A stretch of 38,987 nt of DNA from a phage, in sequence record PZ379547.1; one strand, given 5' to 3'. A program made the translations under genes and the position numbers. The notes beneath the pieces were generated by a model. That model searched no databases. It saw only the letters and a list, made by a program, of their open reading frames with translations, and had not been told where the DNA came from. Shown here piece by piece: positions 21,825 to 23,886 of the stretch (positions within the stretch are counted from its first letter, which is position 1; each line of letters opens with the position of its first letter).

Positions 21825-21847
21825 ACTAAACTATCACTATAGGGAGA
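21825..21847 (+). promoter_or_regulatory. Phage RNAP promoter upstream of capsid gene (T7 phi10-like), with 5' leader hairpin
   Basis: actaaactatcactatagggaga; +1 G at 21842; leader GGGAGACC ... GGUUUCCC can pair, like the T7 phi10 leader. Confidence 0.9.
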
Positions 21848-21949: not shown

Positions 21950-22999
21950 ATGGCAAAAGTTCCGGGTCAGAAAGTTGGTACAGACCAAGGTAAAGGCAAA
22001 TCTGGTTCCGACGCTCTGGCGTTGTTCCTGAAGGTCTTTGCTGGCGAAGTCCTGACAGCATTCACTCGCCGCTCTGTAACTGCTGACAAGCATATTGTCC
22101 GTACCATTCAGAACGGTAAGTCTGCTCAGTTCCCGGTCATGGGTCGCACCTCTGGTGTGTATCTGGCTCCGGGTGAGCGACTGTCCGATAAGCGTAAAGA
22201 TATCAAACATACCGAGAAAGTGATTACCATTGATGGTCTGCTGACTGCCGATGTGATGATTTTCGACATTGAAGACGCGATGAACCACTATGACGTGGCT
22301 GGCGAGTACTCCAACCAGTTGGGCGAAGCTCTGGCTATCGCTGCCGATGGTGCGGTACTGGCTGAGATGGCTATTCTGTGTAACCTACCGGCTGCATCTA
22401 ATGAAAACATCGCTGGTCTTGGCAAAGCGTCTGTGCTGGAAGTTGGTACTAAAGCAGGCCTGAACACTCCGGCTAAGCTGGGTGAAGCAATCATCGGTCA
22501 ACTGACCATTGCTCGTGCGAAGCTGACATCCAACTACGTTCCTGCTGGCGACCGTTACTTCTACACCACGCCGGACAACTACTCTGCAATCCTCGCGGCT
22601 CTGATGCCGAACGCTGCTAACTATGCTGCGCTGATTGACCCAGAGACTGGTAACATCCGTAACGTAATGGGCTTCGTGGTTGTTGAAGTTCCACACTTGA
22701 CTCAGGGTGGTGCTGGGGAAACTCGTGGTGCCGATGGTATCACTATTGCGACTGGTCAGAAGCACGCCTTCCCAGCTACTGCTACTGGTGATGTTAAAGT
22801 TGCTCTGGACAACGTTGTGGGCCTGTTCTCTCACCGTTCTGCTGTGGGTACTGTGAAGCTTCGTGACTTGGCGCTGGAACGTGACCGTGACGTCGATGCT
22901 CAGGGCGACCTGATTGTTGGTAAATACGCTATGGGTCACGGTGGTCTGCGTCCTGAAGCGGCTGGCGCACTGGTTTTCAGTCCAGCAGCAGCGGGTTAA
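21950..22999 (+). CDS. gp10A: Major capsid protein 10A (T7 gene 10A homolog), 349 aa
   Basis: LALFLKVF.GEVLTAF, KRKDIKHTEKVITIDGLLTADV, LMPNAANYAALIDPE, VGTVKLRDLALER, AMGHGGLRPEAAG match recalled T7 gp10A; strong SD (taggag). Confidence 0.97.
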   Translation: MAKVPGQKVGTDQGKGKSGSDALALFLKVFAGEVLTAFTRRSVTADKHIVRTIQNGKSAQFPVMGRTSGVYLAPGERLSDKRKDIKHTEKVITIDGLLTADVMIFDIEDAMNHYDVAGEYSNQLGEALAIAADGAVLAEMAILCNLPAASNENIAGLGKASVLEVGTKAGLNTPAKLGEAIIGQLTIARAKLTSNYVPAGDRYFYTTPDNYSAILAALMPNAANYAALIDPETGNIRNVMGFVVVEVPHLTQGGAGETRGADGITIATGQKHAFPATATGDVKVALDNVVGLFSHRSAVGTVKLRDLALERDRDVDAQGDLIVGKYAMGHGGLRPEAAGALVFSPAAAG

Positions 23000-23262
23000 T
23001 GACCTTCAGGACTCTCTCTACTGAGGGTCCTACCTTGGAAACCTTGGAGTCCTCAGTGGGTGTCAGTATTAAGGTTGACTTCCCTGAGCTGGCAGATGTG
23101 ACCGACTGGTCTCTGCTGGATGTAACCATGCCGGATGGTGTGAGCTACTCTCGTAGAACTTCAAGTCTCTACTTCAAGGCCACCGATGCTGTGACAGGTC
23201 TTGTAACTGTTGGATATGACGGGTCTACCGTTAGGTCATTCAACGTTTCGTTCACAAACTAA
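21950..23262 (+). CDS. gp10B: Minor capsid protein 10B, predicted -1 frameshift product (shift at G GTT TTC, 22972-22978, into the 22999..23262 frame)
   Basis: Heptamer GGTTTTC lies 6 codons before the 10A stop; the -1 frame stays open for about 94 more codons to TAA 23260-23262; same arrangement as T7 10A/10B. Confidence 0.65.
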
Positions 23263-23268
23263 TTGAAA

Positions 23269-23304
23269 CCCCTTGGGTGCCTTCGGGTGCTTGAGGGGTT
23301 TTTT
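23269..23304 (+). terminator. Strong intrinsic terminator after capsid gene (T7 Tphi-like)
   Basis: CCCCUUGGGUGCC-UUCG-GGUGCUUGAGGGG (13-bp stem with G-U pairs, UUCG tetraloop) followed by UUUUUU. Confidence 0.9.
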
Positions 23305-23319
23305 GCTTAAGGAGGGCCT

Positions 23320-23886
23320 ATGGCTCAATACATTCCACTGAACGCTAACGATGACTTAGATGCCATCAACGATATGTTAGCTGCTATAGGTGAACCAGCA
23401 GTCCTACAGCTTGACGAGGGTAACGCTGACGTCTCTAACGCTCAACGTATCCTACATCGTGTCAATCGTCAGGTCCAAGCTAAAGGCTGGAACTTTAACA
23501 TCAACGAAGCTGCTGTCCTGACACCTGATGTCCAAGACAATAGGATTCGATTCTTGCCGTCATACCTTCGTGTAATGACCGCTGGGGCCACCAGCTACTA
23601 CAGCAACATGGGTGGATACCTGTACGACCTGTCCACTCAGTCGACCACTTTCACCGACCCTATCACGGTAGAGCTTGTGGAGATGAAGCCATTCTCAGAG
23701 ATGCCTGTGGTCTTCAGGGACTACATCGTTACCAAGGCCAGCCGTGAGTTCAACGCTAAGTTCTTCGGTAGCCCAGAGTCTGAACTGTACCTTCGTGAGC
23801 AGGAAGCAGAACTCTATCAGCAGGTCATGGAATACGAGATGGATACTGGTCGCTACAACATGATGTCCGACATAGGGAGAGACTAA
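23320..23886 (+). CDS. gp11: Tail tubular protein A (T7 gene 11 homolog), 188 aa
   Basis: INDMLAAIGEPAV, NAQRILHRVNRQVQAKGWNFNI, FRDYIVTKASREFNAKFFGSPE, MEYEMD match recalled T7 gp11. Confidence 0.92.
   Translation: MAQYIPLNANDDLDAINDMLAAIGEPAVLQLDEGNADVSNAQRILHRVNRQVQAKGWNFNINEAAVLTPDVQDNRIRFLPSYLRVMTAGATSYYSNMGGYLYDLSTQSTTFTDPITVELVEMKPFSEMPVVFRDYIVTKASREFNAKFFGSPESELYLREQEAELYQQVMEYEMDTGRYNMMSDIGRD

Follow-up and report, generated by a model that had tools for sequence, protein, structure and literature searches.

RESULTS

The capsid gene and the −1 frame at its 3' end

[quoted passage not shown]

21950 to 22999, plus strand: gene 10A, major capsid protein, zero frame (349 aa, 36.3 kDa; open reading frame [ORF] and Pfam)
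22957 to 22999, plus strand: overlap zone of the two frames, where a −1 shift could be productive (a TGA at 22954 to 22956 closes the −1 frame upstream)
22972 to 22978, plus strand: slippery heptamer G GTT TTC (Val342-Phe343), in the register X XXY YYZ, proposed −1 shift site
22978 to 23262, plus strand: 10B-specific −1 extension (94 codons plus TAA)

The gene 10 region was 99.6% identical to that of Escherichia phage vB_Eco_ZCEC02 and ~94% identical to that of many Kayfunavirus genomes, identities that assign the phage to the T7-like coliphages of the genus Kayfunavirus. The 10A product matched the Gp10A-like family PF21703 in Pfam (E 2.6e-105), which identifies it as a T7-family major capsid protein, and matched the solved T7-like capsid structures 9vvq, 7y23, and 2xvr (T7 10A, E 2e-147). 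Identity to Escherichia phage Peacock was 98 to 100% over 10A and 75 to 81% from ~22950 on, where the extension allele diverges. The 3' end of 10A reads GCA CTG GTT TTC AGT CCA GCA GCA GCG GGT TAA, with the TAA at 22997 to 22999. An earlier note on this DNA had placed the heptamer six codons before the 10A stop, with a −1 frame that stays open for about 94 more codons. Both statements were borne out: by direct reading, six sense codons lie between the heptamer and the TAA, and 94 sense codons (22978 to 23259) precede the −1 stop, TAA, at 23260 to 23262. Within the 43-nucleotide overlap, the heptamer was the sole run allowing re-pairing of the A-site tRNA. The predicted fused protein, 10B, comprises 437 aa (45.9 kDa, versus 36.3 kDa for 10A), and the shift would give Val-Phe-Gln within the predicted 10A/10B junction peptide, YAMGHGGLRPEAAGALVFQSSSSGLMTFR.

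GGTTTTC was found 3 times in the window, versus 3.86 copies expected, and was thus not rarer than chance; when the same 282 nucleotides were shuffled, 1.2% of the shuffles had a 94-codon open frame. Taken without further evidence, the heptamer and the open frame are only mildly unusual, near chance, and significance therefore comes from the comparison with relatives. Long −1 frames past stop codons were also seen in other genes of the window because the next gene overlaps.

Co-occurrence of the slippery site and the extension

A tblastn search with the −1 peptide returned 454 phage records, in which the match always lay directly behind the capsid gene and always in the −1 frame. The extension was found in Kayfunavirus, Caroctavirus (CR8), Przondovirus (K11 and KP32), Pektosvirus (PP47), and others, with identity down to ~40%. 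Among loci from IMG/VR that encode the extension domain, 56 of 56 had it in the −1 frame of the capsid gene, and all 56 had N GTT TTC in register on Val-Phe codons, 3 to 6 codons before the zero-frame stop. The upstream stop in the −1 frame was always 5' of the heptamer, both in the relatives and in the IMG/VR loci.

For codon usage at the site, 72 unique 3' ends of T7-like capsid genes were compared; the peptide RPEAAGALVF is encoded by most of them. A recognizable conserved extension was present in 33 of the 35 ends with GTT TTY (21 of the window type, 9 of the T7 type, and 3 with Big_2) and in 0 of the 25 ends with GTC, GTA, or GTG TTC and without A AAG. The in-register A AAG, the T3-type lysine slip site, was found in 12 of the 72 capsid ends, almost all of them with Big_2 extensions. 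Two loci in this comparison (L023 and L058) had GTT TTC with an extension that was damaged or truncated. Fisher's test gave a P value of 7e-15 for the association between codon and extension, a value that is illustrative only, as the sequences are related and phylogeny is uncorrected. GTTTTC was invariant in all loci bearing the window-type extension, with adjacent synonymous positions varying freely. That slippery codons are kept only together with an extension shows that the slip site is itself under selection.

The same joined frames, and the same 10B, would result if the phage RNA polymerase added an extra U in the run of four T residues. Insertion of one base in GTTTTC indeed encodes an identical Val-Phe-Gln junction, and the GenBank record of Citrobacter phage CR8 marks "tttt" as the site. 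RNA polymerases slip appreciably on homopolymer runs of roughly 7 to 9 residues or more, however, and four T residues fall far below the length needed. What is conserved is, moreover, the heptamer in its codon register, beyond a mere T run, and reviews treat T7 gene 10 as a ribosomal case with tandem re-pairing on G_GU U_UUC (PMC5009743). We therefore regard such transcriptional slippage as highly improbable.

Purifying selection and start codons in the −1 frame

Past the 10A stop, a comparison of the window with Peacock-like alleles gave dN/dS values of 0.14 to 0.19 in the −1 frame and values of >1 in both other frames. Changes at third positions of the −1 frame accounted for 35 to 47 of the 58 to 72 differences between these alleles. 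Extension codons 9 to 26, just past the 10A stop, had dN/dS values of 0.21 to 0.30, so that the predicted linker (see below) is under purifying selection as well. These ratios indicate purifying selection in the −1 frame that sets in at the 10A stop.

A candidate start codon for a protein separate from 10A is present in the window.

22999 to 23001, plus strand: ATG overlapping the 10A stop (TAATG, 22997 to 23001), start of an 87-aa public "hypothetical protein"

Re-initiation at this ATG would yield a free 87-aa protein without any frameshift. The overlap of the ATG with the 10A stop and the annotation of the ORF as its own hypothetical protein in most public records are in line with such a separate gene. 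The ATG was, however, confined to the window and PE3-1 alleles, and Peacock-like phages have ACG at this position. In the other clades, the first possible start lay late, at extension codons 9 to 33, with no Shine-Dalgarno sequence before any candidate start of the −1 ORF; in two loci, the only possible start, TTG at codon 31 (L020) or GTG at codon 33 (L006), lay within the folded domain. Across the relatives compared, no ATG, GTG, TTG, or Shine-Dalgarno sequence was conserved in the −1 ORF. Gene callers disagree on the start accordingly, reporting 87-, 84-, 76-, 68-, 64-, 63-, and 54-aa versions, fragments that arise because the −1 ORF is without a conserved start. In addition, purifying selection on the −1 frame extends upstream of all conserved starts, the upstream −1 stop invariably precedes the heptamer, and an Ig-like domain made as a free protein would be without a capsid anchor. 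A separate gene is thus very unlikely. Re-initiation at ATG 22999 may contribute a small amount of the free 87-aa protein in this lineage; it cannot explain the conserved arrangement.

The near-chance heptamer count and the 1.2% of shuffles with an equally long open frame would also fit an untranslated relic or a coincidence. Against this stand a dN/dS of ~0.15 with the correct codon periodicity, conservation of the protein to ~40% identity over four genera, a confident fold model (see below), and the presence of site and extension together in 56 of 56 loci. Of the readings considered, a relic has the least to recommend it, and the probability we assign to it is minimal. Selection, the co-occurrence of site and extension, and the lack of a conserved start together are the reason that both the separate gene and the relic were rejected.

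A predicted linker and Ig-like domain

The extension matched phrog_7473, a family of unknown function (E 1.4e-35), and had no Pfam match at an E value of ≤1. Two parts were distinguished in an AlphaFold2 model built from a 20-sequence alignment (mean pLDDT, 81.7), in which residues 1 to 19 were disordered and residues 20 to 94 were confident.

22978 to 23034, plus strand: predicted flexible linker, extension residues 1 to 19 (AlphaFold2 pLDDT of <50 for residues 1 to 6 and 8 to 18)
23035 to 23259, plus strand: predicted Ig-like seven-strand beta-sandwich, extension residues 20 to 94 (75 residues; AlphaFold2)

The best PDB match of the model in Foldseek was the C-terminal Ig-like domain of the lambda tail tube protein gpV (TM score, 0.55; E 1.5e-3), and the best match among viral models was the "minor capsid protein" of Pectobacterium phage PP81, a member of the same extension family. 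Sequence and profile searches found no solved structure of any relative of the extension. On the strength of the model, the added C-terminal module is confidently predicted to be an Ig-like beta-sandwich. Exemplar predicted peptides of the extension are VDFPELADVTDWSLLDVTMPDGVSYSR, TLSTEGPTLETLESSVGVSIK, and ATDAVTGLVTVGYDGSTVR.

Kinship of the phrog_7473 domain with Big_2 (PF02368) was rejected: none of 9 family members had a Big_2 hit at an E value of ≤10, and hhalign of the domain against Big_2-type extensions gave a probability of 0.4%. A BACON-repeat protein (P0043) was matched with an E value of 5.8e-12, summed over 5 stretches. The similarity was weak when the extension family was aligned with the P0043 repeats by hhalign (43.5% probability; E 2.4e-4; 69 collinear columns), and the family had no direct Pfam hit to BACON or viral BACON (PF13004 or PF19190). 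We regard this weak similarity to BACON repeats as a possible lead, not as a finding. Long hits in the representative library were rejected as whole-domain homologues, being mostly repeat proteins that share a short "..ALYF..DG" or BACON-like motif.

RNA elements around the proposed shift site

No RNA structure was predicted at the canonical spacing of 5 to 9 nucleotides 3' of the heptamer. The 122 nucleotides 3' of the site folded no better than shuffles (z −0.88), and RNAalifold found no clade-wide structure 3' of the site among 14 diverse relatives (−1.8 kcal/mol). Direct reading of 22940 to 22971 revealed no Shine-Dalgarno-like stimulator 5' of the heptamer. An Rfam scan of 22850 to 23330 (E ≤ 1) returned only a chance match to NsiR1, on the terminator. 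As a canonical stimulator is absent from the sequence, the efficiency of the shift could be low. Two other elements lie downstream.

23008 to 23031, plus strand: local RNA hairpin of 9 bp with a 6-nucleotide loop, candidate RNA element (starts 30 nucleotides 3' of the heptamer)
23265 to 23305, plus strand: Tphi-type intrinsic terminator, immediately following the 10B stop (stem of 17 bp; −25.2 kcal/mol; z −4.4)

The hairpin was the second most stable 36-nucleotide fold within ±250 nucleotides. It was kept in Kayfunavirus relatives, with 91% of cells paired; the changes were one-sided only, and no two-sided covariation was found in the hairpin of the window lineage. Five divergent phage groups with this extension had their strongest or second-strongest local hairpin at +20 to +57. 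The equivalent hairpin in K11-like phages comprised 18 bp, which were 98.7% paired among 31 sequences (35 to 52% in shifted-register controls). Two of its pairs had two-sided changes, from A-U to G-C (11 sequences) and from C-G to U-A (9 sequences), a covariation that arises partly via amino acid substitutions (Thr to Val and Ser to Pro). No comparable hairpin was found in PP47 and K1F. The hairpin lies farther from the site than a conventional stimulator would; it may act as a frameshift signal, in mRNA stability, or in pausing.

The terminator has a CCCC at 23269 to 23272, 291 nucleotides 3' of the shift site, and its motif, AACCCCTTGGG...GAGGGGTTTTTT, is common to T7, K1F, K11, CR8, and PP47. 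The CCCC of this terminator has been reported to be involved in frameshifting in T7 (PMC5009743). Pairing of the CCCC with GGGUU at 22993 to 22997 was considered and rejected, as the CR8, K11, and PP47 clades do not keep the G run. Queuing of ribosomes behind a terminating ribosome was likewise rejected; the distance from site to stop, a variable 3 to 6 codons, is too short for a collision.

Comparison with known gene 10 frameshift systems

In T7, tandem slippage at G_GU U_UUC yields ~10% 10B (PMC5009743; PMC1635266). The T7 gene 10 has a homologous capsid product and carries the identical heptamer on the homologous Val-Phe pair, a few codons short of the 10A stop; as in the window, its −1 ORF runs to a Tphi terminator with the 5' arm AACCCCTTGGG, and a canonically spaced stimulator is lacking. 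CCCC lies 180 nucleotides from the site in T7 and 291 nucleotides from it in the window. The extensions, in contrast, are unrelated: that of T7 comprises ~53 aa, is rich in Ala, Glu, and Lys, and has no Pfam match, whereas that of the window comprises 94 aa and is predicted to fold as an Ig-like domain. No homology was found between the window extension and the ~50-aa tail of T7 and K1F (…AARTRAAN…), and the motif classes are separate. Thus, of the suggestion in the earlier note that there is a 10B with a C-terminal extension as in T7, the extension stands, giving a predicted protein of 437 aa, but it belongs to a family unrelated to the T7 tail. K1F, of the type species of Kayfunavirus, shares genus, heptamer, and position with the window and has a short extension of the T7 type (~48 codons; ...QQKAARTRAANRA...) that is not Ig-like. 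A fusion of K1F g10b to gfp gave stable fluorescent virions, an experiment in which a −1 product both tolerated GFP and was built into the particle (PMC6277420).

Joined 10B proteins with the same heptamer, the same −1 join, and an extension of the same family are annotated in two relatives. That of Escherichia phage Peacock (MK903279) has an extension 78% identical to that of the window; unlike Peacock, the window has an ATG overlapping the stop and a divergent extension. The extension of Citrobacter phage CR8 (HG818824) is ~44 to 47% identical. For the joined 10B of CR8, the GenBank record carries the remark "matches in mass spectrometry analysis"; the text of the CR8 genome announcement mentions neither 10B nor mass spectrometry, so that the statement stands in the GenBank note only. 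In the closest records (ZCEC02, PE3-1, and HC12), the extension is a separate hypothetical protein. A protein identical to the full 437-aa 10B predicted for the window was not found in the protein collection, in which the 87-aa 3' part of this 10B is deposited as a hypothetical protein (PE3-1, HC12, and others).

Peptides of the Kvp1 10B were identified by mass spectrometry, with the shift at TTTTCA, a site that was contrasted with those of T3 and phiYeO3-12, which lie at lysine codons (PMC2579914). In T3 and phiYeO3-12, a −1 frameshift adds an Ig-like fold of ~90 aa that ends before Tphi (PMC5009743). T3 differs from the window in its slip site, C CCA AAG/A AAG (lysine) versus G GTT TTC (PMC2579914), and in its domain family, which is Pfam Big_2 in T3; the window domain has no Big_2 match. 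On the basis of the modeled fold, the phage is grouped functionally with phages carrying frameshift-displayed Ig-like modules (PMC5009743), although its site is of the T7 type and its domain is from a family of its own.

DISCUSSION

The sequence-level predictions of a T7-type gene 10 frameshift, as proposed in the earlier note, all hold at this locus, namely, those for the site, the −1 ORF, the terminator, selection, starts, and co-occurrence. From sequence comparison, we consider a −1 ribosomal frameshift at 22972 to 22978 the highly probable source of 10B. Most ribosomes on the late gene 10 mRNA would end at the TAA at 22997 to 22999 and release 10A. By analogy with T7, a minority would slip by −1 with tRNA-Val and tRNA-Phe on the GUU UUC of G GUU UUC, upon which tRNA-Phe would move from UUC to UUU with perfect re-pairing and tRNA-Val from GUU to GGU with partial re-pairing. 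Slipped ribosomes would then read 94 codons in the −1 frame up to the TAA at 23260 to 23262. The resulting 10B would consist of 10A residues 1 to 343, a linker of ~19 residues, and the 75-residue Ig-like domain and, as in T7, would be expected to co-assemble with 10A as a minor component of the shell, with the domain on the capsid surface. The displayed domain would probably serve in weak adhesion to surface or mucus glycans, again by analogy.

These results leave the known frameshift mechanism unchanged. What is gained is that the annotation is corrected and that a widespread family of 10B extensions is assigned a fold. The extension has been deposited as a free hypothetical protein of 64 to 87 aa in ZCEC02, PE3-1, HC12, LS2, and many others; its annotation should be merged with gene 10 to give 10B. 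The choice between GTT TTC and GTC TTC, which tracks the extension, constitutes a clean natural experiment on slip-site selection. For low-copy display or for fusing a reporter in a coliphage of the therapeutic type, the natural places, with T7 and K1F as precedents, are the linker and the end of 10B (23259).

The modules found behind the site comprise the T7-type tail, the phrog_7473 Ig-like (possibly BACON-like) domain, Big_2, and a 475-aa extension of Big_2 plus an unknown part. A speculative idea, to which we give a low probability, is that the conserved G GTT TTC is a fixed "socket" for unrelated capsid-display modules swapped by recombination and that the hairpin recurring 20 to 30 nucleotides 3' of it (23008 to 23031 in the window) is an unrecognized, noncanonically spaced part of the frameshift signal. 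If this were true, the hairpin could shed light on how frameshifting in T7 gene 10 is stimulated from a distance, which has long lacked an explanation. As an Ig-like capsid module that evolves and recombines independently of the shell, the extension is a candidate determinant of adhesion to mucus or cell surface glycans.

Apparent exchange of the extension allele at the slip site

Comparison of window positions 22950 to 23262 with the capsid loci of Peacock (L001) and vB_EcoP-U8 (L002) revealed an abrupt mosaic breakpoint where the slip site lies. Gene 10A was 98 to 100% identical between the window and these two phages, whereas identity from approximately position 22950 to the stop codon of 10B, the proposed −1 frameshift product, was only 75 to 81%. 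These sequences indicate that exchange of the extension allele has been independent of the shell gene. K1F, of the same genus, carries a heptamer identical to that of the window, but the extension behind it is wholly different and of the T7 type.

In two relatives, GGTTTTC was retained despite a damaged extension. In L023, the domain sequence gives way after ...DVTDWSLLEVTTPE to an unrelated hydrophobic sequence, and in L058 (K1F-like) a stop is reached in the −1 frame after 15 codons; decay, insertions, or assembly errors may account for both. Four environmental T7-like contigs (L029, L033, L047, and L069) had nonslippery capsid codons (GTC TTC or ATC TTC) and a −1 frame open for 216 to 224 codons. 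This frame is so long because it meets no stop and continues into gene 11 (tail tubular protein A), which looks like a coincidence of frames and not an extension.

Annotation and expression signals around gene 10

Two features of the window concern the annotation and probable transcription of the locus:
21825-21847, promoter-like sequence ACTAAACTATCACTATAGGGAGA, approximately 100 nt upstream of gene 10, found by direct reading
22997-23001, TAATG, the 10A stop codon overlapping an ATG in the −1 frame

The upstream sequence is similar to the promoter consensus of T7-family phage RNA polymerases (...CACTATAGGGAGA) and is probably a phi10-type late promoter for the 10A/10B mRNA. The overlapping ATG, which was confined to the allele shared by the window and PE3-1, is the reason that an 87-aa "hypothetical protein" is called in many records. 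One member of this open reading frame (ORF) cluster is listed as [quoted passage not shown] on a 39,989-bp contig. A Staphylococcus host label was unexpected for a Kayfunavirus-type capsid extension, and the entry may be a mislabeled record.

A hairpin 3′ of the heptamer was present in K11-like phages (Przondovirus):
L106-L146, alignment A5 columns 27-69 (+20 to +62 after the heptamer), 18-bp hairpin

Across 31 distinct sequences, this hairpin was 98.7% paired, with covariation at 2 base pairs (AU/GC and CG/UA); the covarying changes included nonsynonymous ones, in the 10B linker. Hairpins differing in sequence from the K11-like one were found at the equivalent position in CR8-like phages (with a UUCG loop) and in Kayfunavirus.

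Domains carried by the extensions

The 10B domain (23035-23259) had no direct Pfam hit and showed weak collinear profile similarity (hhalign probability 43.5%, E = 2.4e-4) to BACON and viral BACON repeats, which are of a carbohydrate-binding type.

A much longer extension was found in two IMG/VR genomes (UViG_3300034127_000003 and 3300034349_000001):
L045:964-2397, and also L049, long −1 extension locus

The capsid 3′ end at these loci is T7-like (...ALVFTPAA*), and the homologous site reads G GTT TTT A, followed by a 475-codon −1 ORF ending just 5′ of a Tphi-like terminator and of the ribosome-binding site for gene 11. Extension residues 1 to 83 matched Pfam Big_2 (E = 1.5e-10); the remainder had no Pfam match and contained GTNN...DGTH motifs recalling SGNH hydrolases. 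The extension of L045 and L049 may be a frameshift-made enzyme displayed on the capsid.
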